A stretch of 32,000 nucleotides of DNA from an uncultured Acidimicrobiaceae bacterium (GTDB taxonomy: Bacteria > Actinomycetota > Acidimicrobiia > Acidimicrobiales > RAAP-2): contig CAWDOU010000001.1 in NCBI GenBank assembly GCA_963804055.1, positions 451,156 to 483,155 of the forward strand, read 5' to 3'. Of this stretch, positions 6,641 through 22,848 are shown piece after piece; within the stretch, counting starts at the first letter, position 1, and every line of letters begins with the position of its first letter. Made by a program: the position numbers and the translations under genes. The notes under the pieces were generated by a model that searched no databases, had not been told where the DNA came from, and saw nothing but the letters and a program-made list of their open reading frames with translations.

Positions 6641-6651
6641 GAGGGAGGGAC

Positions 6652-7071: not shown

Positions 7072-7466
7072 GCGTGCGCGTCCAGGTCCGCGAGGGACTG
7101 TTCACGGACGGCGAGGCGCCGGCGCTCCTGGGTACCCGTTGCGCCGCCTGCGGATCGGTCCACTTCCCCCGGGCCGATTCCTGCACCTACTGCGCCACCG
7201 AAGACCCCGAGCCGGTGGAGTTGTCCCGCCACGGCACGTTGTGGGCCTGGACCGCGGTGACCGCGCCGCCGCCCGGCTACCAGGGCGAGGTGCCGTTCGG
7301 CGTCGGCGTGGTCGAGCTGCCCGAGGGGGTCCGGGTCATCACGCGGCTGACCGAGAGCGACCCCGGCGCGCTGACGGAGGGGCAGCCGATGGAACTGCGC
7401 ATCGTGCCGCTGCACCGGGACGAGGACGGGAACGACGTCGTGACCTACGCCTTCGCGCCGGCATGA
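7068..7466 (+). CDS. Zn-ribbon/OB-fold protein (DUF35 family, thiolase partner)
   Basis: Has a CxxC...CxxC rubredoxin-like knuckle (CAACGSVHFPRADSCTYC) followed by an OB-fold segment (GTLWAWTAV...PFGVGVVEL). Stop/start overlaps occur on both sides (TTGA at 7068, ATGA at 7463). Confidence 0.85.
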   Translation: MSVRVQVREGLFTDGEAPALLGTRCAACGSVHFPRADSCTYCATEDPEPVELSRHGTLWAWTAVTAPPPGYQGEVPFGVGVVELPEGVRVITRLTESDPGALTEGQPMELRIVPLHRDEDGNDVVTYAFAPA

Positions 7467-8596: not shown

Positions 8597-8620
8597 GCTG
8601 ACCGCAGGAAGAACACGCGA

Positions 8621-8637
8621 CCGGCCACGGGGGCCGG
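8621..8637 (+). terminator. candidate GC hairpin after the thiolase operon
   Basis: CCGGCC (8621-8626), a 5-nt loop, then GGCCGG (8632-8637), 25 nt after the stop at 8596. There is no U-tract, so this is weak. Confidence 0.25.
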
Positions 8638-8650
8638 CGGGGAGCCGTGC

Positions 8651-9169
8651 ATGGTCGATGCGAGCCTGTGGCAGGAGGGTCCGGAGTCGCCGGTCACCGA
8701 GTGGCGGGCGACCGTCTGGGGCATGCCGACCCTCTTCTCCCTGATGGGCATTGTGTTCGGACTCGGCTTCCTGGTGATCGGCGCCGATCATCTCGTGGCA
8801 CCGACGAGCTCGATCTCCCGTCTGCTTGCGCTCGGAATGATCGTCGGCGGACTGTGGTTCGCCGGTCTGAGCGGGCTGTCGGCCCTTTTCACCGTGAAGA
8901 GCATCAGGTTGCGGGAAGACGGAGACCTCGTGTTCACCGCATGGCGCCGGGAGGTCCGTGTCCAACCGGGTGGCCTGCTCTCCGTGCAGCCTGTGGTGTT
9001 CGATTGGAACAGGCTGCTTCCCTTCAGGGTCGACTCGGACCAGGGGACCCTCTGGTTGTGGCCCAGGTTCACCGACATGGACACGCTCTGGGACGCGTTC
9101 TTGTCGCACAGCCTGTTGGCGTCCGTTGCGCCGCTTTCGCCGTCCTTCCCGTGGAGCCGGAGCGGCTGA
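8651..9169 (+). CDS. membrane protein, two TM helices plus a beta-rich C-terminal domain (bacterial PH-like/YdbS-like layout)
   Basis: 172-aa ORF. Hydrophobic helices are LFSLMGIVFGLGFLVIGA and LLALGMIVGGLWFAGLSGL. Next comes VKSIRLREDGDLVFTAWRREVRV, a TM-TM-PH type arrangement. The family call is tentative. Confidence 0.5.
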   Translation: MVDASLWQEGPESPVTEWRATVWGMPTLFSLMGIVFGLGFLVIGADHLVAPTSSISRLLALGMIVGGLWFAGLSGLSALFTVKSIRLREDGDLVFTAWRREVRVQPGGLLSVQPVVFDWNRLLPFRVDSDQGTLWLWPRFTDMDTLWDAFLSHSLLASVAPLSPSFPWSRSG

Positions 9170-9193
9170 GAGCTGGTCGCGTTGCGGTCGATC

Positions 9194-10078
9194 TCAGGCG
9201 CCCGCGGGCGCGGTCAGGGAGGAGCGCCACGCCGGGGGAGCGATCGTCGCGAGATCGCGCTGCACCTTCGGCGTGCTGTCGCGCGGAGGCGAGTCGAAGA
9301 ACGTGATCGATCGGCAACCCGACAGGGAGACGAGCACGGGTCCGAAGGCCGTGCCGTCGGCGTACTGGAAGTACAGACGTGCCTCGGAGCCATTGTCTCT
9401 CGGGCAGGCCACGCCGGCGTGAGCCGCCGGAGCCGCATTGATGTCGTCCACCAGGGTCGAAGCGAGTCGGGCCCCGATCGACCCATAGGCGATTTTGCAC
9501 TGCGTGCTGTCCGACCCCGGGTCCCATTGCACGGTGCCGGCGGCCGGTTGCGAGCGAATGGGCACCGTCGTGGTTCCCGGGGGAGATGTGGCGGGGTAGA
9601 CGAGGTCGCAGCGTCCATCACGCACGTACGTCGTTTGCACGACCCGGGGGATGGACTGCACGTTGAACGCCGACTGCCCGATTGACGTGCAGCTCTGCTG
9701 TCGGGTGACCGGCAGGAATCCGCCCCCGACGCTGACGAGGTCGCCCTCGTGCGCAATGACGTGTCCTTGTGCATTGAGCAGTTCGGCGGGGTGGAGCCGC
9801 ACTTTGAAACCGGTTGGCCACAGGAAGGGGTCACGCCCCCCGAGGCCGGCGCAGGCGCCCGACTTGGTCAGATAGACGTGGAATGGCCCTTCGCTCGCGG
9901 CCTCCATGGAGAAGCCCCCGTCAGACGTCCAGCCGTCGGACGGAAGCGAGTAGGTCGGCCCGTCGTGCGAGTGTGCGCTTGCCGCCGCCGCGGAGGACGT
10001 CAGCCCGGTCCCGAAAGCCAGTACGGCCAAGACGATGACGGCGCCGGCCCGCCCGGTCCGAAGCGTGTGCGTGCTCAC
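9194..10078 (-). CDS. secreted hypothetical protein
   Basis: 294-aa ORF with a signal-peptide-like N-terminus (RTGRAGAVIVLAVLAFGTGLTSSAAAASA). Several Cys residues lie in the mature part. No family recognised. Confidence 0.55.
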   Translation of the reverse strand: MSTHTLRTGRAGAVIVLAVLAFGTGLTSSAAAASAHSHDGPTYSLPSDGWTSDGGFSMEAASEGPFHVYLTKSGACAGLGGRDPFLWPTGFKVRLHPAELLNAQGHVIAHEGDLVSVGGGFLPVTRQQSCTSIGQSAFNVQSIPRVVQTTYVRDGRCDLVYPATSPPGTTTVPIRSQPAAGTVQWDPGSDSTQCKIAYGSIGARLASTLVDDINAAPAAHAGVACPRDNGSEARLYFQYADGTAFGPVLVSLSGCRSITFFDSPPRDSTPKVQRDLATIAPPAWRSSLTAPAGA

Positions 10079-10139
10079 CAGCCAACACGATACGTCGGAC
10101 GTGTTCGAATTGTCGGTCCCGGTTCACCGGGCCTTCCGC

Positions 10140-10583
10140 TCAGGAGCGGGGCGGCAGCACCGTGAAGGCGATCGTCGAGACGGCCGCCAGCTTGTTCTCC
10201 CGGCCGACGTCCGTGACCTCCACCTGGAGCACGAAGGTGGAACGGCCCTGCCGCACGATCCAGGCGTCGGCGCGTGCGGGGCCGACGGCCACCGGGGACA
10301 GGAAGTGGATGTTCATGTCCGAGGTCGCGGTGCTGAAGCCGTTCTCGTGATCGCACGAGTCATAGGCCAGACGTCCGGCGCAGACGTCGATCAGCACCGC
10401 AATGAGGCCGCCCTGCAGCGCGCCACGGACATTCGCCACTTCCGGGCGGACGTCCATCTCAATGATGAGGTGACCCTCGGGCGCCGGGATGTCCTTCGTG
10501 CCGAGTTGCTCGAAGAGGTGCCCCCCCTGTGCGATCACCTCGTTGTGCAGCTGGGACAGTTCCGCGTTGGGGAGCTTCGCCAT
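10140..10583 (-). CDS. PaaI-family hotdog-fold thioesterase
   Basis: Trimmed to ATG 10583 (MAKLPNAELSQLHN...). The segments NVRGALQGGLIAVLIDVCAG and FLSPV...A.IVRQGRS fit the PaaI/4HBT pattern. The 63-aa upstream extension of the track ORF is Pro/Arg/Gly-rich. Confidence 0.8.
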   Translation of the reverse strand: MAKLPNAELSQLHNEVIAQGGHLFEQLGTKDIPAPEGHLIIEMDVRPEVANVRGALQGGLIAVLIDVCAGRLAYDSCDHENGFSTATSDMNIHFLSPVAVGPARADAWIVRQGRSTFVLQVEVTDVGRENKLAAVSTIAFTVLPPRS

Positions 10584-10609
10584 GGGACATGGATATCCCA
10601 ACTCCGACG

Positions 10610-10637
10610 GGGCCGCTAATCGGGTCGGGCGCGGCCC
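10610..10637 (-). terminator. candidate hairpin downstream of the 217-aa gene
   Basis: GGGCCGC (10610-10616) pairs with GCGGCCC (10631-10637) across a 14-nt loop, about 20 nt after the minus-strand stop at 10657. There is no clear U-tract. Confidence 0.25.
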
Positions 10638-10656
10638 TCCGTTGCCGATGCGAGGC

Positions 10657-11310
10657 CTACCTCGTGACGTCGAAGGTGGCGGTCCCCGTCGTCCTGTCCC
10701 CGTGGTGCACCGTCCGACCGATTGTGCCGGTGACGTGGTCGGAGCCGATCGTCCCGCTGAAGTGGGCGACATTCGACGTCGTCCGTCCGGTCAAGGTGGC
10801 GTGGATCGGCTGTCCGTGGAAGGAGCCGGTGACCGTGCCGAACGTCTGCGCGGCCTTCGACGTCAGGCTCAGATTCGACAGGTTCAGCGAGATGTCGAGG
10901 GTGAAGGCGGTCCCCTCGATCGTCCCGGTGATGTCCGCCACGGGCAGGCTTGCGGGGATGGAGAGCGAGGTCGTGCCCAGTCCCGTGCCGCTCTGCTGCG
11001 GCAGGGGTGGGACGACACCGGTCGCAACGATCGGGAGCCCGCGGGCCGAACCGCTGATCGGCCCGATGGTGGGCTTTGTCCCGCTCGCGCCGGTCCACGA
11101 GACGGTGGCACTGCCTTTTCCGAGGGGAATCGAACGCAACCGTGCGATCTCGGCCGTCACGGGCACGGAGAGCAACCCGAGCGCCGTCAGTGTCCCGACG
11201 GCGATGGCGGTGCAGCGCCACGTCCCGCGCCGGGACCACAGGCGAGGGGAGTGTCCGGCCGGCATCCGCTGATCGTAGGCAGCCACGATGTCCCAGGGCG
11301 GCGAGTTCAT
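10657..11310 (-). CDS. membrane-anchored/exported hypothetical protein
   Basis: 217-aa ORF with an N-terminal hydrophobic anchor, CTAIAVGTLTALGLLSVPVTA. The remainder is Gly/Thr/Ser-rich with recurring GTI/GTV motifs. No family recognised. Confidence 0.5.
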   Translation of the reverse strand: MNSPPWDIVAAYDQRMPAGHSPRLWSRRGTWRCTAIAVGTLTALGLLSVPVTAEIARLRSIPLGKGSATVSWTGASGTKPTIGPISGSARGLPIVATGVVPPLPQQSGTGLGTTSLSIPASLPVADITGTIEGTAFTLDISLNLSNLSLTSKAAQTFGTVTGSFHGQPIHATLTGRTTSNVAHFSGTIGSDHVTGTIGRTVHHGDRTTGTATFDVTR

Positions 11311-11432
11311 CCCGTCGTCACGCTTCCTTCGCGGCCCGTGGCCTCACCGGGTCGGCCGGAGGCGGTGCATAGGATTGCTCCGTGGCGTCGGCCGGCGAAC
11401 CTCCGACACCGGATCCCCTCTGGGTCGGTGAC

Positions 11433-12488
11433 ATGCAGATCCGTCTGCTGGCTCCGTCCGAGTCAGCCCGGCTCGGCGAAGCCGTTCGGGCCGTCTACGG
11501 CGAGACCTACCCCGTGCAGTGGACCTACGACCCGGACGAGGTGGCCCGCCGTATCGCCGCCGGTCTCCTGATCTCGGCCATCGCCGAGACGGCCGAGGGC
11601 GAGCTGCTGTGTCATTCGGGTCTCGTGCTCAACGCACCGGGTGACGCCATCGGCCACGCCGGCCAGGCTCTGACGCTGCCCGCGGCGCGGGGGCAGCACA
11701 TCTTCACCACGGTCAAGCGTTACCTCGTCGACTGGGCGGCGGCCCTGGCGCTCGTCGGCATGTACAGCGAGGCCACTGCCGCCCATCCCTACAGCCAGCG
11801 GGCCCTGTTGGATCTGGGCGGCCACGAGACGGGATTCTTGCTCGGCTTCATTCCTGCGACGGTCGACAACAACGCCGCGGAGGGGTCGAGCCGGGGCCGC
11901 ACGTCGGCCGCATTGTTCTTTCTCCGGTTGCGACCGGGCCATGAGCGGATGCTCTATGCGCCCACCCGTCACCGCGACATCGTGCTCCAGACGATTCAGA
12001 TCTGTGGGTCCCGGTCCACCCTGGCCGAGGCGCCGGCGAGCCCGGACCTTCCCCCCGTCTCCGAACTCTCCATCGAGAATGATCCCGGCGACAACGTCGC
12101 GACCCTGATGGTGCACCGGGCCGGCGAGGACCTGACCGCCCGTGTCGACGCGGAGCGCGCCCGGCTGTTCGGTGAGGGCGTCGACGCCCTGTATGTGGAT
12201 CTGCCGCTCGACCGGCCCGAGTCGGCGCACGTGAGCACTGCCCTGCAGGAGCTCAGCCTGTCCTACTCGGGGATCTTCCCCAACAACCGGGCCGCGGCGG
12301 ACGTCCTCCGGCTGCAGTGCCTGCGCGACGCCACCGCCTGGAGTCACGACGTGGCGGTGGCCTCCCCCCACGGTGCCGCACTGCTCGAGTATGTGATCGC
12401 GGACATGGAGGCGGTGGGCCAGAGGGTCGAGCGGGCCGCCAACACGTGTGTTCCCGGTGACGCCGTCCCGCTGGTCGCCGTGCGCTGA
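11433..12488 (+). CDS. GNAT-like acetyltransferase with an uncharacterised C-terminal half
   Basis: The N-terminal ~150 aa (MQIRLLAPSE...LTLPAARGQHIFTTVKRYLVDWA...YSQRALLDLGGHETG) has the layout of a GNAT acetyl-CoA-binding fold. I could not assign the C-terminal ~200 aa. The start could also be ATG 11382. Confidence 0.55.
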   Translation: MQIRLLAPSESARLGEAVRAVYGETYPVQWTYDPDEVARRIAAGLLISAIAETAEGELLCHSGLVLNAPGDAIGHAGQALTLPAARGQHIFTTVKRYLVDWAAALALVGMYSEATAAHPYSQRALLDLGGHETGFLLGFIPATVDNNAAEGSSRGRTSAALFFLRLRPGHERMLYAPTRHRDIVLQTIQICGSRSTLAEAPASPDLPPVSELSIENDPGDNVATLMVHRAGEDLTARVDAERARLFGEGVDALYVDLPLDRPESAHVSTALQELSLSYSGIFPNNRAAADVLRLQCLRDATAWSHDVAVASPHGAALLEYVIADMEAVGQRVERAANTCVPGDAVPLVAVR

Positions 12489-12503
12489 GGGCGCCAACCC
12501 GGA

Positions 12504-13118
12504 TCAGGCGATCGGGAAATCGAAATAGGTGTCCGGGTACGGCTCGTGTCCGAGGGTGTAGTGCCACCATTCACGGTCGTAGGACCTGAAGCCGCAGTCC
12601 TCCATGATGGAGCACAGAGAGCGGCGGTTCCTCGCCTCGAGTTGCGAGATTCCCCGTGCGCCATGATGCGAGATCGGATCCATCAGATCGTGGTCTCCAC
12701 CCATGGCAGCCAGATCTCCGCTGCCCAGGTCGTAGAGGGTCAGGTCGACCGTGCTGCCCCTGCTGTGCCCCGATCTGGTCGCCACGTAGCCGTCCTCGAA
12801 CATCGTGACCCTCTCCATGTTGGGATAGTGCCGCATCTTCGTCCGGCCGTCCTCCGGCTGTTCTGACCATCGCACGAAGCAATCCACGGCCCGCTGCGGC
12901 CGGTAGCCGTCCCAGAGGAGCAGACCGAAACCCCACGACGCAGCCTGGTCCCGTGCGTGCGCGAGCGCTGCGCACAATGCCCTCGTACCGACGATGCGAT
13001 TCGCCAGGTACCCGTCGACCGGCCGCCCGGTGAAGTTGTCCCACGTGGCGTACTTTGCATCCCAGCGAACTCCGGGCACCAGCTCGTCGACGTAGACGAA
13101 CTGCTCGAACATGGTCAT
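12504..13118 (-). CDS. vanX: D-alanyl-D-alanine dipeptidase VanX
   Basis: Trimmed to ATG 13118 (MTMFEQFVYVDELVPG...). VanX signatures are present: WDGYRP, SGHSRGSTVDLTL (Zn ligands) and REWWHYTL. Its start overlaps the ligase stop (ATGA at 13115-13118). Confidence 0.92.
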   Translation of the reverse strand: MTMFEQFVYVDELVPGVRWDAKYATWDNFTGRPVDGYLANRIVGTRALCAALAHARDQAASWGFGLLLWDGYRPQRAVDCFVRWSEQPEDGRTKMRHYPNMERVTMFEDGYVATRSGHSRGSTVDLTLYDLGSGDLAAMGGDHDLMDPISHHGARGISQLEARNRRSLCSIMEDCGFRSYDREWWHYTLGHEPYPDTYFDFPIA

Positions 13119-14149
13119 CTCGCGCTCAGCGCCAAGGCCACGACCCGGTCGACGACATCGGCGAGCGACCATCCCGCGGCCGCCATCATCCTCGGAAAGC
13201 GGCTGTACGACGTCAGGCCGGGCATCGTGTTGACCTCGTTCAGGACGACCGTTCCGTCCTCCTGCAGGAACAGGTCCACCCGCGACAGACCCCGGCACCC
13301 CAAGGCCTGGTAGAGGGTCCTCGCCGTCTCTTGGACACGTGCTCGTGATTCCGGTGGGATGTCGGCGGGCACAATGAAGGTGGCGTTCTCCGAGCCACTC
13401 TCCGGCCGCTGTTCCTGATGGATTCTGAAGAACCCATGGGACAGAGCGACGCGGTCCGGCTCGCCGACGATCAGGTCGGCGCCGTTGCCGATGACCGCGC
13501 AGCCGATCTCGCTCCCGATGAGGGCGTCCTCAATGAGGACCTTCGTGTCGTAGCGCCGTGCGGTGTCGATCGCACCCAGGAGTTCCTCCGGGCGGGAGAC
13601 CTTGCTGACGCCGAACGACGACCCCGACCGGGCCGGCTTTACGAACACGGGGTAGGTGAACTCGTCGGGATCGACGACAACGTGCGGTGTGATCGCTCGG
13701 AAACGCGGTGTTTCGATGCCGGCCTGGCGAGCGACGAGGTACGTGAGCGACTTGTCCATGCACAGCGCGGAGCTCTGAATGTCGCAGCCCACGTAGGGGA
13801 CGCCGGACAGGTCCAGCAAGCCCTGGATGGCCCCGTCCTCGCCCTGTTTCCCGTGCAGAACAGGGAACACCAGGTCCACGGGGACCTCTTCGTAGCCCTC
13901 CGGGGTGTGGACGAGGAGCCCGTGCACGCGTCGGTCCGGCGACAGCAGCGCGGGAAGGCAGGTGCCGGCTTCCCAATCCGCATCGGGGTCGTCACACAGT
14001 GTCCAGTTGCCCCGTGTCGTGATGCCGACGTAGAACGGTTCGTACGTAGCGGGGTCGAGGGCCCTCGCGACCTCTTGCGCTGACTTGAGCGAAACCGCAT
14101 GCTCTTCTGAAGATCCTCCGAAGAGGACCGCGATCCGCACCCTAGCCAT
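13115..14149 (-). CDS. vanA: D-alanine--D-lactate ligase (VanA/VanB-type)
   Basis: Begins MARVRIAVLFGGSSEEHAVSLKSA. Contains GFFRIHQEQRPESGSENATFIVPADI and LNEVNTMPGLTSYSRFPRMMAAAG. These closely parallel enterococcal VanA as I recall it, including the His-containing RIHQE segment. Flanked by vanH and vanX with overlapping stop/start codons. Confidence 0.92.
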   Translation of the reverse strand: MARVRIAVLFGGSSEEHAVSLKSAQEVARALDPATYEPFYVGITTRGNWTLCDDPDADWEAGTCLPALLSPDRRVHGLLVHTPEGYEEVPVDLVFPVLHGKQGEDGAIQGLLDLSGVPYVGCDIQSSALCMDKSLTYLVARQAGIETPRFRAITPHVVVDPDEFTYPVFVKPARSGSSFGVSKVSRPEELLGAIDTARRYDTKVLIEDALIGSEIGCAVIGNGADLIVGEPDRVALSHGFFRIHQEQRPESGSENATFIVPADIPPESRARVQETARTLYQALGCRGLSRVDLFLQEDGTVVLNEVNTMPGLTSYSRFPRMMAAAGWSLADVVDRVVALALSAR

Positions 14150-15197
14150 GAGGATCCGCTCCCAGGAAGCAGAGACAGTTGGTGAGAGTGGCCTCCATGA
14201 TGTCCCGGAGGGCGTGGTCCGTGTAGTAGGCGGTGTGTGGTGTGATCACGACGTTCGGCAGCTTCTGCAATCGCGCCAACAGCGGGTGCGAAGCGGGATC
14301 CCGGCTGTGATCGAAGTAGAAGATGCCGTCCTCGCCTTCGAGGACATCCAGGGCCGCTCCACCGAGGCGCCCGCTCTCCAGGGCGTCGAGAAGGGCCTCC
14401 GTGGCGACGAGTGATCCCCGTCCCGTGTTGATGACGAACGCCCCTGGCTTCATCTGCCCGATCCGTTGGCGGTCCAGGAGGTGGTGGGTCTCTCCGGTGA
14501 GAGGCGTGTGGAGCGTGACGACATCGCTGTGCGCCAGCAGGGCGGCGAGGGGCACGCAGCCGATGGAGGGCTCTGGACGCCGGTCATGGACGAGCACCCG
14601 ACCGCCGAAGCCCCGCAGGCGGTCGAGAACCGCAGATCCGATGCGCCCCGCCCCGATCACGCCGATCGTCATGTCGCGGAGCTCCCGCCCGAGGACCTCG
14701 CCCAATCGGTAGTCGTGCGCCTGTGAGCGGAGGACTGTCGATTGGGCGTTTCGCGCCACCATCAACAGCAACAGCAGCGTATAGTCGGCCACGCTGGCCG
14801 GCGAGTAGGCGACGTTCTCGACCGAAATCTGCAGGCACTCCGCTGCGCGCAGATCGATATGGTCATATCCCACGCTCCTGGTCGAGATGTACCTCACGCC
14901 GGCCTGGTGGAGAGCACGAAGGGTGGCGTGTGAGACCTGCGATTTGTGGCCGATGCTGATGCAGCGATTTCCGGCGCTCAGGCGAGCGGTTCCCTCCGAC
15001 GCCGGGGCGCTTGTGATGGTCGGGCTGACGCCATGTCGGGCCGCGATCTCCCGGAGCAAGGCCGTCTCGTTCGGCTCGCAGCCATAGAAGGTGATGCCGA
15101 TCCGAGCAGAGGTGTGGGTTTCATGGCGCGCGCCCGCAGAGAACGCCGGCCGGGGTGCGGGGTGAGCTGCCGAGCGCACCGGTACTCTGGGGTCCAC
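14142..15197 (-). CDS. vanH: D-lactate (2-hydroxyacid) dehydrogenase VanH
   Basis: Has IGITFYGCEPNE near the N-terminus, the NAD-binding segment GVIGAGRIGSAV, and the D-2-hydroxyacid dehydrogenase core. An 8-nt overlap with the vanA start lies at 14142-14149. The first ~33 aa are an Ala/Pro/Arg-rich extension, so the true start is uncertain. An in-frame GTG lies at 15179. Confidence 0.88.
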   Translation of the reverse strand: MDPRVPVRSAAHPAPRPAFSAGARHETHTSARIGITFYGCEPNETALLREIAARHGVSPTITSAPASEGTARLSAGNRCISIGHKSQVSHATLRALHQAGVRYISTRSVGYDHIDLRAAECLQISVENVAYSPASVADYTLLLLLMVARNAQSTVLRSQAHDYRLGEVLGRELRDMTIGVIGAGRIGSAVLDRLRGFGGRVLVHDRRPEPSIGCVPLAALLAHSDVVTLHTPLTGETHHLLDRQRIGQMKPGAFVINTGRGSLVATEALLDALESGRLGGAALDVLEGEDGIFYFDHSRDPASHPLLARLQKLPNVVITPHTAYYTDHALRDIMEATLTNCLCFLGADPHG

Positions 15198-15287
15198 CCC
15201 ATCGAGTCAATCCATTGCGATGTTGTCAGCGGGTATCGAGCTTTGGATACGCCGGCGATATGTCCCGGCACGTAACCTGGCCTGAAT
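15198..15287. promoter_or_regulatory. divergent vanH / vanR control region
   Basis: A 90-bp gap between the divergent vanH and vanR starts must hold both promoters. ATCGAG occurs at 15201 and 15235, and GCGAT(g/a)T(t)GTC-like words at 15217 and 15255. A TAACCT (TANNNT) -10-like hexamer at 15273-15278 sits 9 nt before the GTG start of vanR, and there is no SD. Confidence 0.45.
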
Positions 15288-15974
15288 GTGCGTGTTCTGA
15301 TCGTCGAGGACGAGCCCTACATGGCCGATGCCATTCGTGACGGTCTACGGCTGGAGGCGATCGCCGCCGATATCGCAGCGGACGGTCACGCTGCCCTGGA
15401 GCTGTTGCGCGTCAATTCCTACGACATCGCCGTCCTCGACCGCGACATCCCAGGGCCCTCTGGTGACCAGGTGGCGGGGCGCATCGTCGCCTCGGGCAGC
15501 GGCATCCCTATCCTCATGCTCACAGCCGCAGACCGCCTCGATGACAAGGCTTCCGGGTTCGAGCTCGGCGCCGACGACTACCTCACGAAGCCCTTCGAGC
15601 TCCGGGAGCTCGTGCTTCGCCTCCGGGCACTCGATCGCCGGCGAGCGCACCACAGGCCGCCGGTGCGGGAGATCGCAGGGTTGCGGCTCGATCCGTTCCG
15701 ACGCGAGGTGTATCGGGACGGGCGCTATGTCGTGCTCACCCGCAAGCAGTTCGCAGTGCTCGAGGTACTCGTGGCGGCAGATGGCGGCGTCGTCAGTGCC
15801 GAAGAGCTCTTGGAACGGGCTTGGGACGAGAATGCGGACCCTTTCACGAATGCGGTGCGCATCACGGTCTCATCGTTGCGCAAGCGTCTCGGTGGGCCCC
15901 CGATCATCGCCACGGTGGCCGGTGTCGGCTATCGGATCGAGGCTGCGGCGGAGTCTGAGGAAGATCATGGATAG
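15288..15974 (+). CDS. vanR: OmpR-family response regulator VanR
   Basis: The receiver domain shows MRVLIVEDE, the phospho-acceptor context DIAVLDRDIPG, and DDYLTKPF. A winged-helix C-terminus is present (LTRKQFAVLEVL...GVGYRI). It is divergent from vanHAX and overlaps vanS by 8 nt. Confidence 0.85.
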   Translation: MRVLIVEDEPYMADAIRDGLRLEAIAADIAADGHAALELLRVNSYDIAVLDRDIPGPSGDQVAGRIVASGSGIPILMLTAADRLDDKASGFELGADDYLTKPFELRELVLRLRALDRRRAHHRPPVREIAGLRLDPFRREVYRDGRYVVLTRKQFAVLEVLVAADGGVVSAEELLERAWDENADPFTNAVRITVSSLRKRLGGPPIIATVAGVGYRIEAAAESEEDHG

Positions 15975-17073
15975 AGCCTCCGGCTTGAGTGTTCGCCTCA
16001 AACTGACGCTCAGCTACGCCGGTTTCGTCATGGTCGCAGGTGCCCTTCTCCTTGGTGCCGTCTGGGTGTTCCTGTTGCGCTACGTGCCCAGGGGCGAGAC
16101 CGTTATCGTCCACAACTCGCGCATCCTGGTGTCCCCGGGTCGCGGCGAGCTTCTGCGGGATTTCGGGCCGGCTGCAGCCGTCGTCCTGGTGTGTCTGTTG
16201 GTTTTCGGGCTCCTCGGGGGATGGCTTCTTGCCGGCCGGATGCTCGCCCCTCTGGCCCGGATCACCGAGGCCACACGCATGGCTGCAGAAGGATCACTGT
16301 CGCATCGGATACGCCTCCCCGGCCGGAAAGACGAGTTCCGCGAGTTGGCAGATGCCTTCGACACCATGCTGGCGCAGCTGGAGGCACATGTGGCGGAACA
16401 GCAGAGGTTCGCCTCCAACGCCTCCCATGAACTTCGCACGCCGCTGGCGATCACACAGACACTTCTTGAGGTCGCGCGAAACGATCCCTGTCGAGGAGAC
16501 GACCAGCTCGTCGACCGTCTTCTCCTGGTGAACGCCCGCGCCATCAATCTCACCGAGGCGTTGCTGGTGCTCAGCCGCGTCGACCAACGGTCGTTCACGC
16601 CGGAGGACGTCGACATGTCGCTTGTGGTGGAGGAAGCCACCGAGGTGCTCCTTCCTCTCGCCGAGAAGCACGGCGTGACGATGGATGTCTCCGGAGGCCT
16701 GGCTCAGACGACGGGTTCCGCTGCACTCTTGTTGCAACTGACGACGAACCTCGTGCACAACGCAATCGTGCACAATCTCGATCACGACGGTGCCGTGTGG
16801 GTCACCATCGGTGTCCAGGGCCAAGACGTGGTGCTGACGGTCGAGAACACCGGAGCGAGGCTCACCGCGCAGGCCGTCTCCACACTGGTCGAGCCGTTCC
16901 AGCGCGGATCCACGCGCCTGCACACCGACCACGGTGGCATAGGTCTCGGGCTGGCGCTTGTCGACAGCATCACGAGCGCACACGACGGGACGCTCACGCT
17001 GGCCCCCCGTCCCAGCGGAGGGCTCTGTGCGGTGGTTCGACTGCCCGCGGTGCCACGGGAGGTGGTTCGGTAG
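15967..17073 (+). CDS. vanS: sensor histidine kinase VanS
   Basis: ATG 15967 lies inside track ORF 15328..17073. There are two TM helices with a short extracytoplasmic loop, a HAMP-like linker, the H-box ASHELRTPLA, the N-box LVHNAIVHN and the G-box DHGGIGLGLALV. Confidence 0.85.
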   Translation: MDRASGLSVRLKLTLSYAGFVMVAGALLLGAVWVFLLRYVPRGETVIVHNSRILVSPGRGELLRDFGPAAAVVLVCLLVFGLLGGWLLAGRMLAPLARITEATRMAAEGSLSHRIRLPGRKDEFRELADAFDTMLAQLEAHVAEQQRFASNASHELRTPLAITQTLLEVARNDPCRGDDQLVDRLLLVNARAINLTEALLVLSRVDQRSFTPEDVDMSLVVEEATEVLLPLAEKHGVTMDVSGGLAQTTGSAALLLQLTTNLVHNAIVHNLDHDGAVWVTIGVQGQDVVLTVENTGARLTAQAVSTLVEPFQRGSTRLHTDHGGIGLGLALVDSITSAHDGTLTLAPRPSGGLCAVVRLPAVPREVVR

Positions 17074-17156
17074 ATATCCGGTCCTGGGCCGTCGCGCCTG
17101 TTCCGCAGGCTCGCAGACCCCCATACGTGCTTCGTCGTCACGAACTGATTCCAAAG

Positions 17157-17681
17157 GTGTACGTGAAAACCTTCCCGAAAGTGGTCCTCGCGGTGTACAC
17201 GGCCGTCCTGCTCTGGCTGATTCTGTTCAAGTTCTCAGTGCATATCGATGCTGTGCTGCACTACGACAGGAGGAGTCTGAACCTCGTGCCGTTCTCGGAC
17301 GCTTCGGGGAGCGTGGGCGAGATGCTCGACAATGTCCTCGTCTTCATCCCGTTCGGTGTGTTATTGGGCGTCACCTGCAAGCGTCTCAATGTGTGGCGCA
17401 AGCTTCTCGTTGTCCTTGCCTTCAGCCTGACCGTCGAGGTGCTGCAGTACGTGTTCGCCATCGGAGCCTCGGACATCACCGACGTCATCGCGAACACGTT
17501 CGGTGGCCTTCTCGGGCTGATGGCCTATGACCTGGGTCGCAGGCACATTCGTAAAGAGAGCCTCGACAGGTTCATCGTGACCGCGGGAAGTGCGTTCCTC
17601 GCGGTGTTTCTCCTGCTTCTTGCGGTAGTGGAGATCCGTCATGGAGTGCGATATCACTTGCCCCACACGAGGGGCAACTGA
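17157..17681 (+). CDS. VanZ-like family membrane protein
   Basis: The C-terminal part of track ORF 16797..17681 has the layout VLAVYTAVLLWLILF...NLVPF...NVLVFIPFGVLLG...EVLQY...SDITDVIANTFGGLLG, typical of VanZ (PF04892). The start is ambiguous: GTG 17127, 17157 or 17163. GC is visibly lower here than in the van enzymes. Confidence 0.75.
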   Translation: MYVKTFPKVVLAVYTAVLLWLILFKFSVHIDAVLHYDRRSLNLVPFSDASGSVGEMLDNVLVFIPFGVLLGVTCKRLNVWRKLLVVLAFSLTVEVLQYVFAIGASDITDVIANTFGGLLGLMAYDLGRRHIRKESLDRFIVTAGSAFLAVFLLLLAVVEIRHGVRYHLPHTRGN

Positions 17682-17705
17682 ATGAGGGTCGGTGAGCCGC
17701 CGAGA

Positions 17706-18116
17706 TCAGGGCAGCGTGGAGCCCGCGTCCATCGGGACTCCGACGACCGAGGCGATCCGGCTGAGGTCGGCGTCGTGGGCCAGGAGCACCGCCCCGTGGC
17801 GGAGCGCCACCGAGGCGATCATGCAGTCCACCAGCCCACGTGGTGTCACGCCGGCCCGGCGACATCTCCGATAGATCAGGCTCGCTGCGTCGAAATCGGC
17901 GACGGCCTCGAAGGTGAGCAGGTGACAGCGGGCGAGCAGTCGCTGCAGATCGGCCGCCCGGTTGTCACTGCGCGCGCCGGCGACGACTTCCATGACGACG
18001 GGTTCGGTGACCGCCAAGGCGCCATCGTCGGCGATGAGTTCGGCCATGCGTTGGTCGACGCGGCTGCCGGAACCGCGGTCGTACTCCACCCAGGCCGAGG
18101 TGTCGGCGAGGATCAC
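17706..18116 (-). CDS. vapC: PIN-domain ribonuclease toxin VapC
   Basis: Begins MILADTSAWVEY. The PIN acidic residues appear in ILADTS, VMEVV, LVDCMIA and LLAHDAD. The GTG start overlaps the vapB stop (GTGA at 18113-18116). Confidence 0.88.
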   Translation of the reverse strand: MILADTSAWVEYDRGSGSRVDQRMAELIADDGALAVTEPVVMEVVAGARSDNRAADLQRLLARCHLLTFEAVADFDAASLIYRRCRRAGVTPRGLVDCMIASVALRHGAVLLAHDADLSRIASVVGVPMDAGSTLP

Positions 18117-18325
18117 CGCCCGTCGGCGGGGCCCGAGTCCTGGGGAACCTCCCCGATGGCGTGCGCCCCCCGCATCGCCAGCGCCTCGTCACGGGTCATG
18201 GGCTGCCCGGCGAGGTGCCGGAGTGCCAGGTCGACCGCTTCCGTCTTCGTGTGCACGCCGTAGCGGTCCATCACCGCCCGGAGAACCGTCTCCTCTATCT
18301 CGATGTTGGTGCGTGCCCGGCTCAT
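18113..18325 (-). CDS. vapB: VapB-family antitoxin
   Basis: Trimmed to ATG 18325 (MSRARTNIEIEETVLRAVMDRYGVHTKTEAVDLALRHL), the classic VapB_antitoxin N-terminus. 70 aa, with a 4-nt overlap with vapC. Confidence 0.8.
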   Translation of the reverse strand: MSRARTNIEIEETVLRAVMDRYGVHTKTEAVDLALRHLAGQPMTRDEALAMRGAHAIGEVPQDSGPADGR

Positions 18326-18362
18326 ACACGTATCGTACACATGACGTGTAGGGAGCGTGTAG
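18325..18362 (-). promoter_or_regulatory. vapBC operator/promoter (four TACACG/CGTGTA half-sites, leaderless -10)
   Basis: TACACG lies at 18325, TACAC(a) at 18336, and CGTGTA at 18345 and 18356. This makes two pairs spaced 11 bp apart in inverted orientation. On the minus strand TACGAT (TANNNT) lies at 18332-18337, 6 nt upstream of the vapB ATG, and there is no SD. Confidence 0.5.
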
Positions 18363-18669
18363 CAAAGCACGCCGTTAATGGTGGATGGAGCCGCAGGGAA
18401 GAGGGTGATTGGTGTCCAGTCCCACAATCCGGATCGACAATCGTCTCGAAACTAACGCCATACCAAGATGAGCATCCCTCCTCGAATTGTCCCTTAGCTG
18501 GACGTCCAGGTGCAGGCCTCACATGAGGCGATCCAAGCTGGCGCATTCGTCACCCGTGAAGGTCTTCAAAGTACCTGACTCCGCAACAGTTGTCGCTGCC
18601 ATTTCCCAGCGGCATACTTCCCAACCGAGCGTTGGGCTGTGAGCCCGATTCTGGCGAAGGCGGTGCACG

Positions 18670-21600
18670 ATGATCAGTCGGCAGAGGGGATCGGGGAGGC
18701 GCGCGCCTTCCACTCAAGCGCCCCCTTTTGCGCGCCTGCCCCAGGGTCGCCTGGGGCGCGGGACATTCCTGGCCTGGGTTCGCCTGGCCCTGTGCACCGC
18801 GCTGGCCGCCGCCGCATCGATCTTGGCCCTTGGTGTTCCTACGGCCAGCGCTGGTGCCGCCGAGCACGCCACGAGCAGCACCTTGGGCTATCGCCTCGTC
18901 GCCTCTGACGGGGGCATCTTCGGCTACGACGCTGCTTTCTTCGGATCTGCTGGTGGCAGGCATCTCAACGAGCCCATCGTCGGCATGGCGCCCACTCCTT
19001 CGGGCGACGGGTACTGGGAAGTTGCCTCCGACGGTGGCATCTTCAATTACGGCGACGCCAAGTTCTTGGGGTCGACGGGAGCCATCCATCTGAACAAGCC
19101 CATCGTTGGCATGGCGGCCACCCCCGATGGCGGGGGCTACTGGCTGGTGGCATCCGACGGCGGCATCTTCACCTACGGCGACGCCAGGTTCTTCGGTTCC
19201 ACCGGTGCCATCCATCTGAACAAGCCCATCGTCGGCATGGCGGCCACCCCTGACGGCGGTGGCTACTGGCTGGTGGCCAGCGACGGTGGGATCTTCACCT
19301 ATGGCGACGCCGGCTACTACGGCTCGACGGGCAATGTCCACCTCAACAAGCCGATCGTGGCCATGACGGCGAGTCCTGACGGCGGGGGCTACTGGCTGGT
19401 GGCCTCCGACGGGGGCATCTTCAACTACGGAGATGCCACCTTCTTGGGATCGACCGGGGCCGTCCACCTCAACAAGCCGATCGTCGCCATGACCCCGACC
19501 CCTGACGGCGGGGGCTATTGGCTCGTGGCCTCCGACGGGGGCATCTTCAACTACGGCGACGCCACCTTCTTGGGATCGACCGGCGGGACAGCGCTCAACG
19601 CCCCCATCGTCGGACTCACCTTCTACCGCTTGATCCTGCATCAGCCGGTCACGTCGCCCACGACCACGTCACCGACCACGACCATTGCACCGACGTCGCC
19701 CACGACGACGACGACTGCCCCGACCACGACGACGACAACCATCCCGACCTCGACCACCACATCAACATCGACCACCAGCACCACGACGACGATTCCTCCC
19801 ACCACGACCACCACGACCGCCTCACCGACGTCGACTACGACGACCACTGCACCCACCACTACGACCACCACGACCACTTCACCGACGTCGACCACCAGCA
19901 CGACGTCGACCACCAGCACGACGGTGGCGACCCCCATTCCGACGATCACCTCGATCAGCCCGACCGCTGGGCTGACCTCGGGTGGGACGTCGGTTGTCAT
20001 CACCGGCACACACCTCAACGGGGCGACCACGGTCAAGTTCGGCACCGCCTCAGCCAGATTCACCGATGACAGCACCACCTCTGTCACGGCCACCGCCCCA
20101 GGAGGGTCAGCCGGCACCGTCGACATCACGGTCACGACACCGGGGGGCACTTCGGCCACCTCGTCGGCCGATCAGTTCACCTACGTGGCCGTTCCCGCTG
20201 TCTCCTCCATCAGCCCGACCGCAGGAAGCTCCTCCGGGGGCACGAGTGTCACCATCACCGGGACCAACCTCTCGGGGGCCACCTCGGTCGAGTTCGGATC
20301 CAACCCGGCCACAGTTACCGGCGACAGCACTACCTCGATCATTGCGACCGCACCCGCGGGAACGGGCACCGTCGACGTGACCGTCACCACTCCCGGAGGC
20401 ACCTCGGCCATTTCGGCGGCCGACGAGTTCAGCTACGTCTTTGACCCATGCAGCCCGCTAACGGCAAACACGGAGGTTCCCTCGGGCATCTATGTCGTCA
20501 ATTGCACAATGGACGTGCCCCCAGGCGTCACTTTGACGCTTGACCCTGGTGTGATCCTGAAGTTCGGATCAGCAGATGGCATCACCGTCGACGGCACGCT
20601 CGACGCCGTGGGCACCAGCACCGAGCCCATCACCTTCACCTCTCTCAACGACAACTCGGTTGGAGGTGACACTGGCGATGGAACCCCAGGCGTCACAGAC
20701 TGGAGCGGGATCTCCGTTCAGAACTCAGGGTCAATCGATCTCGAGCACGCCGAGATCGCCTACGGAGCGGACGGCATCGAAGGCGGCGGCAACGGATCGT
20801 TCGTCGTCTCCAACGACGTCTTCTTGACCACGGGCACGCCCGTGTCGCTCGACACCTCTGCCTCGGTCACGATCCAGGACGACACCTTTAGCAACAGTGG
20901 CGAGACCCCAGTTTCCGTCGATGCCCCGACGCCGGTGGTCGAGAACAACACCGTGAACCAGAACTCGAGTTCTGGTTCGTCAGAGGTCGCTTTCAGCGTC
21001 GACGGCACCGCGCTCGACCTCAGCCAGTTGCAGCCCAACACAGTGATCGGTACTGGCTTCGTCGGGTTCCAGATCTCAGGGGTTCTGGCCGCAAGTGGGA
21101 CCCTTGCGGCAGGTCCACAACCTTGGATGGTTGGCGCCAATGAAACGGAGACCTCCCTCGTCGTGCCCCAGGGGATTACCTTGACCGTCGCACCGGGTGT
21201 CGTGGTCAAGGGGACGCAATTCGGGTGCGGACCCTATTGCTCGGTTGTGAGCCTCAAGATCGACGGCACGCTCGACGCCGTGGGCACCAGCACCGAGCCC
21301 ATCACCTTCACCTCTCTCAACGACAACTCGGTTGGAGGTGACACTGGCGATGGAACCCCAGGCGTCACAGACTGGAGCGGGATCTCCGTTCAGAACTCAG
21401 GGTCAATCGATCTCGAGCACGCCGAGATCGCCTACGGAGCGGACGGCATCGAAGGCGGCGGCAACGGATCGTTCGTCGTCTCCAACGACGTCTTCTTGAC
21501 CACGGGCACGCCCGTGTCGCTCGACACCTCTGCCTCGGTCACGATCCAGGACGACACCTTTAGCAACAGTGGCGAGACCCCAGTTTCCGTCGATGCCCCG

Positions 21601-22848
21601 ACGCCGGTGGTCGAGAACAACACCGTGAACCAGAACTCGAGTTCTGGTTCGTCAGAGGTCGCTTTCAGCGTCGACGGCACCGCGCTCGACCTCAGCCAGT
21701 TGCAGCCCAACACAGTGATCGGTACTGGCTTCGTCGGGTTCCAGATCTCAGGGGTTCTGGCCGCAAGTGGGACCCTTGCGGCAGGTCCACAACCTTGGAT
21801 GGTTGGCGCCAATGAAACGGAGACCTCCCTCGTCGTGCCCCAGGGGATTACCTTGACCGTCGCACCGGGTGTCGTGGTCAAGGGGACGCAATTCGGGTGC
21901 GGACCCTATTGCTCGGTTGTGAGCCTCAAGATCGACGGCACGCTCGACGCCGTGGGCACCAGCACCGAGCCCATCACCTTCACCTCTCTCAACGACAACT
22001 CGGTTGGAGGTGACACTGGCGATGGAACCCCAGGCGTCACAGACTGGAGCGGGATCTCCGTTCAGAACTCAGGGTCAATCGATCTCGAGCACGCCGAGAT
22101 CGCCTACGGAGCGGACGGCATCGAAGGCGGCGGCAACGGATCGTTCGTCGTTGAACAGACAACCATCACAGACGTCGGTACTGCTATTGCCTTCTCCGGG
22201 AACTCTGCACTCATGAGCGGCATCACGATCGATGACGCCCAATCGGGTTTGTCGGTGACAAGCGGAGCAGCAACACTTCGAGCGATTCTTAACAACGTGC
22301 AGGTTGGCGTCGAGGCTTGTGACTGGGGCACATCCACGTCCTGCTCCGTTGATGCGTCCTACTCCTATTGGGGAAATCCAAGCGGTCCTGGAGGAGGCAC
22401 AAACGGCGAACCATCGGTATGCGGCGACGTCTGGACGAGCCCGTACTACACGTCTGACTCAGAGAGCTCAACCGATACGGGCACGGTCTTTGAGGCAAAC
22501 TGCGACGGTTCGCCAACTCCCGATCAACAGCTAGCTACGGCAGAGCAGAATGAGAGTAGCGCGGAAAGCGTGCTGCAATTGGAGTGTTCGTCTATCGGTC
22601 AGCCCTATTGTCAAGAATTGCAGAGCGACGACCAGTGCCTCTCGGGTCTGATCAGCCTCGGTGAAGCGGCTTCTGAGTACTCCTTCACGGGTCCCGAGGA
22701 CGTGGTCGGGAACGGTGCCGAATTCATCGAGGAGAATGCTTCGGAGGACGTCGGAAATGTTGCAAAAGACGCTGCCTTCCTGGACACAATTTCGTCCTTT
22801 GTTTCAACGGTTCTGCAGGTAGCCGACGCATTGAATTCCTGTTTCTAG
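18670..22848 (+). CDS. large secreted multi-repeat protein (propeller-like repeats, Thr/Pro linker, 2x IPT/TIG, repeated beta-helix-like modules, Cys-rich acidic tail)
   Basis: A single 1392-aa ORF. The N-terminus has a signal-peptide-like segment (FLAWVRLALCTALAAAASILALGVPTASA). Two segments of the type ITSISPTAGxxSGGTxVxITGTxLxGATxVxFG...VTTPGGTS are IPT/TIG-like. The modules GTSTEPITFTSLNDNSVGGDTGDGTPGVTDWSGI with short strand-turn periodicity, plus a YWGNPSGP cap motif, resemble right-handed beta-helix proteins. The exact start codon is uncertain. Confidence 0.85.
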   Translation: MISRQRGSGRRAPSTQAPPFARLPQGRLGRGTFLAWVRLALCTALAAAASILALGVPTASAGAAEHATSSTLGYRLVASDGGIFGYDAAFFGSAGGRHLNEPIVGMAPTPSGDGYWEVASDGGIFNYGDAKFLGSTGAIHLNKPIVGMAATPDGGGYWLVASDGGIFTYGDARFFGSTGAIHLNKPIVGMAATPDGGGYWLVASDGGIFTYGDAGYYGSTGNVHLNKPIVAMTASPDGGGYWLVASDGGIFNYGDATFLGSTGAVHLNKPIVAMTPTPDGGGYWLVASDGGIFNYGDATFLGSTGGTALNAPIVGLTFYRLILHQPVTSPTTTSPTTTIAPTSPTTTTTAPTTTTTTIPTSTTTSTSTTSTTTTIPPTTTTTTASPTSTTTTTAPTTTTTTTTSPTSTTSTTSTTSTTVATPIPTITSISPTAGLTSGGTSVVITGTHLNGATTVKFGTASARFTDDSTTSVTATAPGGSAGTVDITVTTPGGTSATSSADQFTYVAVPAVSSISPTAGSSSGGTSVTITGTNLSGATSVEFGSNPATVTGDSTTSIIATAPAGTGTVDVTVTTPGGTSAISAADEFSYVFDPCSPLTANTEVPSGIYVVNCTMDVPPGVTLTLDPGVILKFGSADGITVDGTLDAVGTSTEPITFTSLNDNSVGGDTGDGTPGVTDWSGISVQNSGSIDLEHAEIAYGADGIEGGGNGSFVVSNDVFLTTGTPVSLDTSASVTIQDDTFSNSGETPVSVDAPTPVVENNTVNQNSSSGSSEVAFSVDGTALDLSQLQPNTVIGTGFVGFQISGVLAASGTLAAGPQPWMVGANETETSLVVPQGITLTVAPGVVVKGTQFGCGPYCSVVSLKIDGTLDAVGTSTEPITFTSLNDNSVGGDTGDGTPGVTDWSGISVQNSGSIDLEHAEIAYGADGIEGGGNGSFVVSNDVFLTTGTPVSLDTSASVTIQDDTFSNSGETPVSVDAPTPVVENNTVNQNSSSGSSEVAFSVDGTALDLSQLQPNTVIGTGFVGFQISGVLAASGTLAAGPQPWMVGANETETSLVVPQGITLTVAPGVVVKGTQFGCGPYCSVVSLKIDGTLDAVGTSTEPITFTSLNDNSVGGDTGDGTPGVTDWSGISVQNSGSIDLEHAEIAYGADGIEGGGNGSFVVEQTTITDVGTAIAFSGNSALMSGITIDDAQSGLSVTSGAATLRAILNNVQVGVEACDWGTSTSCSVDASYSYWGNPSGPGGGTNGEPSVCGDVWTSPYYTSDSESSTDTGTVFEANCDGSPTPDQQLATAEQNESSAESVLQLECSSIGQPYCQELQSDDQCLSGLISLGEAASEYSFTGPEDVVGNGAEFIEENASEDVGNVAKDAAFLDTISSFVSTVLQVADALNSCF
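18886..19623 (+). repeat. six tandem 126-bp (42-aa) coding repeats
   Basis: Units begin at about 18886, 19012, 19138, 19264, 19390 and 19516. The consensus is YWLVASDGGIFxYGDAxFxGSTGxxHLNKPIVGMxxTPDGGG. The DNA copies differ at many synonymous positions. Confidence 0.85.
19645..19941 (+). repeat. low-complexity ACC/ACG-rich tract encoding a ~100-aa Thr/Pro/Ser linker
   Basis: The translation is TSPTTTSPTTTIAPTSPTTTTTAPTTTTTTIPTSTTTSTSTTSTTTTIPPTTTTTTASPTSTTTTTAPTTTTTTTTSPTSTTSTTSTTSTT. Confidence 0.85.
20589..22151 (+). repeat. 100% identical 672-bp in-frame tandem repeat, 2.3 copies
   Basis: Unit starts are at 20589, 21261 and 21933. By eye, copies 1 and 2 are identical over all 672 bp. 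Copy 3 is identical for 219 bp, to 22151. The antisense track ORFs 20760..21209 and 21432..21881 are letter-identical. Confidence 0.95.

Follow-up and report, generated by a model that had tools for sequence, protein, structure and literature searches.

A perfect in-frame tandem array of 672-bp beta-helix modules in a large gene of an uncultured Acidimicrobiaceae bacterium, with whole-unit copy-number differences among assembled relatives

The large gene and its array of 672-bp units

We describe a tandem array inside a large gene in a 32,000-nucleotide stretch of DNA (hereafter the window) from an uncultured Acidimicrobiaceae bacterium, covering positions 451,156 to 483,155 of contig CAWDOU010000001.1 in GenBank assembly GCA_963804055.1; coordinates given without the name of another locus are those of the window. 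The gene (18670-22848, plus strand) encodes a multi-domain protein of 1,392 amino acids (aa), and in its segment 20588-22151 complete beta-helix modules are repeated in tandem and in frame, very probably as a real array that varies in length. In an exact comparison, 20588-21479 and 21260-22151 agreed at every one of 892 bp when offset by 672, giving a periodic tract of 1,564 bp or 2.33 units with a period of 672 bp. The period equals 224 codons and the array is in frame with the open reading frame (ORF). A preliminary description made from the letters alone had reported a perfect in-frame duplication of about 2.3 copies, and the exact comparison agrees with it, placing the start of the identity at 20588, one base ahead of the 20589 given there, and the end at the same position, 22151. 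The two antisense ORFs that it had pointed to (20760-21209 and 21432-21881) are identical as well, being a necessary consequence of the repeat. The edges of the array are sharp, with identity falling from 100% to background right outside the tract (46% and 43%, in compared stretches that still hold about 30 identical bases), and a chance origin of the 892-bp perfect match is ruled out. Older repeats of the same gene have diverged, with 64-81% identity among the 126-bp units, whose divergence had been noted earlier, and 70-81% between two IPT/TIG copies. The array is missing from the Tandem Repeats Finder (TRF) list because the longest period considered by that program was 500. The units are as follows:

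20588..21259, plus strand: unit 1, consisting of a head (DGTLDAVGTSTEPITFTSLNDNSVGGDTG..FVV, 220 bp) and a body (452 bp), with 0 mismatches to unit 2
21260..21931, plus strand: unit 2, identical to unit 1
21932..22151, plus strand: partial unit 3, a 220-bp head that matches those of units 1 and 2 exactly

The layout is thus head plus body, twice, followed by one more head, and each head follows the pattern DGTLDAVGT..PITFTSLNDNSVGGDTG..DW.GI... The partial third unit is the head of a terminal, non-repeated module and runs into the unique body of that module, such that the terminal module combines a head identical to those of the array with a body unrelated to the array bodies. The array lies towards the C-terminal end of a gene with the following parts:

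18670..22848, plus strand: complete gene for a predicted secreted multi-domain protein, 1,392 aa plus stop codon (ORF list, translation)
18670..18852, plus strand: N-terminal signal-like segment, aa 1-61, which starts basic, continues with a long hydrophobic stretch and may be cleaved between TASA and GA (read from the translation)
18835..19613, plus strand: about six older tandem repeats of 126 bp (42 aa, ASDGGIFxYGDAxFxGS..PIVGM), 64-81% identical (TRF, repeat finding)
19660..19923, plus strand: low-complexity linker rich in Thr, Pro and Ser (TRF rows, translation)
19939..20439, plus strand: two diverged IPT/TIG domains, 70-81% identical in DNA (Pfam PF01833, repeat families D4 and D5)
20455..20587, plus strand: pre-head segment of the first module (..VPPGVTLTLDPGVILKF..), from the translation, the boundary comparison and a hidden Markov model module map
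22152..22317, plus strand: unique body of the terminal beta-helix module (EQTTITDVG...), conserved in P0122 and P0121 (alignment A1)
22318..22848, plus strand: Cys-rich domain at the C-terminus, about 175 aa (CDW...C.VDA..YWG...), and the stop codon (alignment A1)

The gene is the only long ORF at this position that matches the local codon bias, and its ATG start is also used in the orthologue of a close relative described below. The N-terminal segment may be either a cleaved signal peptide or an uncleaved membrane anchor. The 42-aa repeats probably form the blades of a beta-propeller-like domain; they gave no Pfam family above cut-off and no meaningful PDB match, and some of their database relatives (70-79% identity) are named beta-propeller or streptogramin lyase by their sources. 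The IPT/TIG domains matched PF01833 (TIG) with 88.3 bits against a gathering score of 20.9 in two stretches (aa 424-505 and about 509-590). The pre-head segment, just outside the perfect array, is paralogous to the tail of each unit, from which it diverged long ago. At the other end of the protein, the Cys-rich domain has 8 invariant cysteines (alignment A1) and a helical tail closing in Cys-aromatic. A Pfam match, a sequence relative in PDB and a confident AlphaFold2 (AF2) model were all lacking for this domain, with a predicted local distance difference test score (pLDDT) below 50 beyond residue ~133 of the model, in which the body of the terminal module reached 80-90. We class it as an uncharacterised extracellular domain. 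Exact look-ups of the large protein, of its Nramp neighbour and of the reconstructed 1,840-aa allele of the close relative found none of them on record. A homology search with the whole protein returned no full-length orthologue, its matches being dominated by IPT/TIG proteins and relatives of the N-terminal repeats.

Several lines of evidence converge on the fold of the unit. Against Pfam, 20455-22317 matched Beta_helix (PF13229) with 81.9 bits in three stretches (cut-off 25.9) and NosD (PF05048) with 42.8 bits (cut-off 23.6). An AF2 model of the pre-head, the two units and the terminal module, built from 19 aligned sequences, contained short beta strands only and reached a mean pLDDT of 90.1 and a predicted template modelling score (pTM) of 0.85. 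The best PDB matches of the model in Foldseek were right-handed beta-helix proteins (PL6 alginate lyases, antigen 43, tailspikes); these matches are weak (TM 0.1-0.28, best E 1e-3) and give the fold class only, with no function assigned. At the level of the predicted fold class, the unit is shown to be a right-handed beta-helix module, and the pTM suggests that the modelled two-unit stretch forms one rigid all-beta body. From about 22 strands per unit in the model and the usual rise of 4.8 Å per rung, we roughly estimate that each unit would add ~3-5 nm. Homologues P0121-P0134 and others have precomputed matches to PF28492 (Beta_helix_4), a family in which we would place the window protein on the sole basis of its 35-49% identity to members.

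Copy number in a close relative and across the family

A close relative, contig_16422 of ENA assembly ERZ25039540 (L084), allows the array to be compared between two alleles. Single-protein scans of genome and metagenome contig collections had returned no close relatives of the large protein, and L084 was reached via the neighbouring VanA-like ligase, of which it holds a 99% identical relative (P0230). This contig is 99.27% identical to window positions 12433-22151, corresponding to 9.7 kb of synteny, and has the same order of genes: vanX-, vanA- and vanH-like genes, response regulator, kinase, VanZ-like gene, PIN/VapB and the large gene. It carries an exact run of 2,236 bp with a period of 672, that is 4.33 units versus 2.33 in the window, and its array closes with the same 0.33 head. 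From the shared start codon, the product has 1,840 aa, or 1,392 plus 2x224 (448). Besides the two whole units, the large gene of L084 differs from that of the window by a single substitution, at 22647. The two near-identical alleles hence differ in essence by two whole units only. This supports the earlier proposal that the absence of divergence reflects a very recent or ongoing duplication or conversion in a length-variable protein, as 4.33 and 2.33 units here coincide with one substitution in the gene. Further, the copy-number comparison among relatives that had been proposed as a check revealed whole-unit differences in L084 and in three other lineages. All of these comparisons, including those of the window, L084 and the three other lineages, were made on assemblies.

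The same behaviour recurs across the protein family. A search with the beta-helix and C-terminal part of the protein found 77 relatives, with 35-49% identity where most of the query was covered, and many of them have perfect tandem module copies of their own, with unit lengths of 176-257 aa. Letter-perfect arrays at the DNA level included 2.99 units of 690 bp in L001, 2.11 of 672 bp in L002 and 3.14 of 624 bp in L003. Additionally, a profile scan of species-representative genomes yielded 74 loci, mostly in metagenome-assembled genomes (MAGs) of Solirubrobacterales and Acidimicrobiales, and these loci, three further related loci and the window constituted a set of 78 sequences that was scanned for arrays. 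Exact runs of at least 40 bp at periods of 310-1,331 bp were present in 30 of the 78, and the periods in these 30 corresponded nearly all to about one module (589-774 bp) or to two modules. Examples are L026 (4.29 units), L027 (3.15) and L022 (2.36). Where about two or more perfect copies were present, the period was divisible by 3 in 11 of 13 arrays, the two exceptions being L028 (625 bp) and a 310-bp repeat in L020 which lies outside the matched gene. Identity between adjacent modules was broadly distributed from 0.2 to 0.8, with few pairs between this range and a distinct peak, made up of 11 among the 53 pairs, at 0.97 or higher, which is the shape expected from a rapid birth and death of copies.

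Alleles that differ by whole units are already visible in the collections searched, and members of the same 90% protein cluster differ in length by whole units. One series comprises L079/L080, L002 and L078, with 1.11, 2.11 and 3.11 units of 672 bp, respectively, and flanks that are 100% identical over more than 7 kb; the corresponding Joint Genome Institute (JGI) samples are 3300056587 (3.11 units), 3300048764 (2.11) and 3300050017 and 3300037233 (1.11 each). Likewise, L082 and L001 have 1.99 vs 2.99 units of 690 bp between flanks 98.8% identical, and L083 and L081 have 2.04 vs 3.04 units of 711 bp between flanks 99.8% identical, L081 being on a contig of 4.08 Mb.

A Solirubrobacterales MAG (L005) contains two separate perfect arrays within 4 kb, one of 3.23 units of 771 bp (9780-12267 of that locus) and one of 3.35 units of 612 bp (13881-15928), and therefore several paralogous genes of a single genome behave as perfect arrays. 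Among the odd periods, L028 has a period of 625 at 8102-9350 and L006 one of 1331, equal to 2x666-1, at 6141-8254, both in Nanopore assemblies. In L001, named as a 'contig_N' and presumed to be Nanopore, a frameshift at about 9954-10001 splits the homologous gene, and P0198 and P0121 appear as separate ORFs. The odd periods and frameshift splits in L028, L006 and L001 are probably indel errors, the alternative being real frameshift alleles.

The C-terminal Cys-rich domain is common to only 12 of the 77 homologues. In P0124, P0142, P0148, P0160, P0186 and P0196, the same beta-helix modules precede a cutinase domain (PF01083) in place of the Cys-rich domain, and in P0124 these modules are perfectly repeated. 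The module array therefore combines with differing C-terminal 'heads'.

Proposed origin of the array and alternative explanations

Long perfect direct repeats such as these are ideal substrates for unequal homologous recombination between sister chromosomes, with replication slippage and gene conversion as less likely routes. Each event would gain or lose whole units of 672 bp, i.e. 224 codons, with the frame kept, and closely related cells would therefore make proteins differing by multiples of 224 residues. The history of these arrays is probably most economically described in three steps. Diverged modules lying side by side would first agree, letter for letter, over a short part of their heads, perhaps as a result of conversion; a crossover within the head/pre-head tract would then, in each lineage, found a two-unit array; and the long perfect homology created in this way would drive rapid expansion and contraction. 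The pre-head/head region is the most conserved part of the module in the alignments (consensus VPxGxTLTxxPGxVxK...GTLxAxGT..PIxFTSxNDxSxGG..GDW), and in all ten independent arrays that have a fractional excess, the peptide of that excess lies in this region. A founding crossover in the shared head/pre-head would explain the fractional array ends found there. A single unequal crossover gives exactly 2.0 periodic copies, and the fractional excess therefore points to sequence in which neighbouring modules already agreed fully. In relatives, isolated patches of 128-248 bp are 100% identical between neighbouring modules that are otherwise 52-92% identical, and these patches look like conversion tracts.

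The perfect palindrome GAACCAGAACTCGAGTTCTGGTTC (24 nt; 20955..20978 in unit 1 and 21627-21650 in unit 2, within the coding sequence) is by far the longest of the window, where others reach 16 nt. As a duplication hotspot it was rejected, given that none was found in the loci of the homologues and that it lies ~370 bp off the array boundaries, and it is probably incidental.

The possibility that the repeat was created by the assembler, raised as the alternative in the preliminary description, concerns the existence of the array itself. The true genome would then hold a single head-body-head, which the assembler looped twice, or else a longer array that it collapsed. Head-body-head is a cycle in the assembly graph and 2.33 copies correspond to exactly one extra traversal; further, the proteins of the window are absent from the records by exact look-up, and short-read contigs of relatives often stop within module heads (L014, L032, L033, L043, L050, L055). 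Short-read MAGs thus consistently carry such genes in broken or truncated form, an effect that real perfect repeats have on short-read assemblies and that as such argues against an artefact. The contigs concerned are k141_ short-read contigs of Solirubrobacterales, Acidimicrobiales and Trebonia MAGs. In the independent contig L084, 99.3% identical, this very unit is repeated perfectly 4.33 times, so that it does occur in multi-copy arrays. Homologous perfect arrays, multi-copy ones among them, lie in many cases in MAGs of Microflora Danica, which were produced from Nanopore reads (median N50 6.1 kb) with Flye assembly and Medaka polishing (PMC12313526), and reads with this N50 of 6.1 kb span arrays of 1.5-3 kb. 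We consequently regard an artefact as improbable.

If the array is real, it could still be a single very recent neutral duplication that is static and has no raised copy-number dynamics, or its units could be homogenised by gene conversion, or preserved by strong selection, while their number stays constant, as concerted evolution without length variation. Zero divergence alone says 'recent' only, and only two alleles of the gene in the window are known. However, these two alleles differ by two units versus one base in the rest of the 4.2-kb gene, and the copy number must therefore have changed at least once, and possibly twice, in almost no point-mutation time. The whole-unit allele differences in three other lineages, one of them a 1/2/3 series, and the spike of adjacent modules at least 97% identical with few intermediate pairs, also stand against a static repeat; contradicted by L084, the static duplication was rejected, and we give it little credence. 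Concerted evolution would account for the conversion-like 100% patches between diverged modules in relatives, and for the terminal module, with its head identical to the array heads and its body unrelated. Yet the copy number is not fixed (2.33 vs 4.33 here; 1/2/3, 2/3 and 2/3 elsewhere), and selection at the protein level cannot explain identity at synonymous sites, which makes this explanation very improbable indeed.

More difficult to dismiss is the view that the array is truly unstable by recombination and that its variation is mutational noise, the modules being tolerated spacers without adaptive value. Modules with conserved heads are intrinsically prone to unequal crossover, the presence of the same modules before differing C-terminal domains (cutinase in P0124) fits a generic spacer, and the periods of some Nanopore loci cannot be divided by 3 (625 in L028, 1331 in L006). 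On the other hand, the predominance of periods divisible by 3 among the arrays with about two or more perfect copies implies that reading frames are kept. Moreover, many lineages retain perfect arrays of several copies even though a misfolding cost is usually ascribed to identical adjacent domains, an argument made for the Periscope Proteins (PMC8201768). Variation without adaptive value is in our judgement a substantial possibility, against which we lean without much force.

Several points weigh against a length-variable array with the history proposed above. The 2.33 units of the window are the count as assembled and depend on its assembly, and the JGI contigs with 1.11, 2.11 and 3.11 units may reflect collapse or loop mis-counting. 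The ENA 'contig_N' assemblies (L001, L003, L081-L084) are inferred to be long-read from their naming and accession range. To account for the extra 0.33 unit, one must further assume that an identical head was already present or arose by conversion, and the recombination mechanism is deduced from its end products, with no intermediate and no within-sample heterogeneity seen. A link between length and function would be a prediction from sequence and model. In addition, inspection of the translation by eye found neither an LPXTG-type motif nor a C-terminal hydrophobic anchor. The earlier term 'surface protein' is borne out only in part, through the signal-like N-terminus and the extracellular-type domains, and the wording that the sequence justifies is 'secreted or envelope-associated'.

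We tentatively propose that this family of secreted beta-helix proteins of soil Actinomycetota-like bacteria (Solirubrobacterales and Acidimicrobiales MAGs) could be a population-level length-variable system, in which the module head would act as a recombination handle that initially seeds and afterwards keeps resizing perfect arrays of 200-257-aa blocks and thereby tunes the distance of the C-terminal domain; we consider this possible, though less probable than not. Independently of this proposal, each unit is predicted to add a block of rungs to one rigid beta-solenoid, and the array block sits between the N-terminal propeller/TIG part and the Cys-rich C-terminal domain. The rod geometry and any selective benefit of length variation are inferred. 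If the proposal were true, a C-terminal domain, whether Cys-rich or enzymatic, would be shifted in steps of a few nm relative to the remainder of the protein or to the cell, and the family would represent a beta-solenoid version of the Periscope Proteins in co-occurring natural strains.

Related systems and neighbouring genes

The closest known class consists of the Periscope Proteins and the alpha C/Rib proteins. The alpha C protein and Rib of group B streptococci have repeats of ~79 aa in up to ~9 or more copies, are LPXTG-anchored, and their immune escape has been shown experimentally. Like the array described here, they feature nucleotide-identical repeats and produce size variants by gaining or losing whole in-frame repeats; they are set apart by the shorter unit, the higher copy numbers, the LPXTG anchor and the demonstrated immune escape. 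The alpha C/Rib proteins are discussed in the paper on Periscope Proteins (PMC8201768). Periscope Proteins are surface proteins with long, highly identical tandem repeats, the number of which varies between close strains by intragenic recombination (PMC8201768), and the repeat number changes the projection of a functional domain (PMC8201768; Whelan et al. 2021; SasG, Rib, Sgo_0707, CdrA and others). Two features of that class were found in the present family, namely DNA-identical repeats with a confidently predicted fold and a copy number that differs between near-identical alleles. The likeness extends to folded tandem modules near-identical in DNA, a count that varies between close strains, recombination as the proposed cause and a stalk-like position between domains. 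The differences are a 224-aa beta-helix block predicted to pack as one rigid body, in contrast to the small immunoglobulin-like or globular beads of Periscope Proteins, as well as low copy numbers (1-4.3), uncultured soil Actinomycetota-like hosts and the lack of a wall-anchor motif in the inspected translation.

With the right-handed parallel beta-helix proteins (PF13229, PF05048; PL6 lyases, Ag43 and pertactin passengers, phage tailspikes), the protein has the fold class in common; it differs from them in that no catalytic or autotransporter features were identified in the window protein and that the structural matches are weak. A modular head-plus-body unit that recurs perfectly in tandem is not known to have been described for them.

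Contingency loci contain repeats of 1-8 bp that shift a reading frame or promoter and thereby switch expression on or off. There, and presumably here, repeats drive a high-frequency, reversible genetic change in an exposed protein; the unit of the present array, however, is 672 bp and in frame, and the length rather than the expression is altered. Phase variation as in contingency loci was rejected for this unit, which is 224 codons long and in frame. From the earlier label 'contingency-type' we therefore retain the in-frame length variation and drop the implication of on/off phase variation through simple-sequence repeats.

The phenomenon is of a known general kind, and the protein family is a little-studied one from soil. 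Its recurrence in such a family, with alleles differing by solenoid blocks of 200-257 aa, is worth recording and will be no great surprise to specialists. Variable-length repeat proteins have so far been catalogued almost wholly from cultured pathogens with small bead-like domains, and the same genetic behaviour is met here in uncultured soil bacteria, where the unit is far larger and belongs to a beta-solenoid. Natural alleles one to two units apart can already be recognised in metagenome assemblies. Short-read assemblies break or mis-count such genes, and copy number in MAGs should be read from long reads that span the array. The locus offers a clean natural system for measuring rates of intragenic recombination, because copy number changes faster than point substitutions build up, and the array could show whether identical adjacent solenoid blocks escape the misfolding problem raised for domains repeated identically in tandem.

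Upstream of the large gene, the following neighbours were recognised:

12504-17681: vancomycin-resistance-type cluster, ~1 kb upstream of the large gene
13115-14149, minus strand: D-Ala-D-Lac-ligase-like gene, whose relatives carry the source names VanA-Sc or D-alanine-(R)-lactate ligase
14142-15197, minus strand: VanH-like 2-hydroxyacid dehydrogenase
17706-18427, minus strand: VapB/PIN (VapC) toxin-antitoxin pair, directly upstream of the large gene and kept in L084

Further genes of this cluster in the syntenic L084 code for an M15 peptidase (VanX-like), a response regulator, a histidine kinase and a VanZ-like protein. In the locus of the closest homologue (L078, L002, L079), the homologous gene is followed downstream by a T5orf172-domain gene and by all parts of a type I restriction-modification system (HsdM/S/R), and no equivalent of these adjoins the gene in the window. 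The 42-aa repeat of the N-terminal part is a widespread, undescribed repeat, occurring at 70-79% identity in hundreds of large proteins of Acidimicrobiales-type metagenome bins, together with many differing domains. Finally, the divergence between the window (12433-22848) and L084 is a mosaic, with 68 of the 71 differences at 12.5-17.5 kb, in the van-like cluster, and only 3 in the remainder, which begins at 17.5 kb and closes with the large gene, a pattern which suggests recombination between strains or differing selective histories of the two segments.

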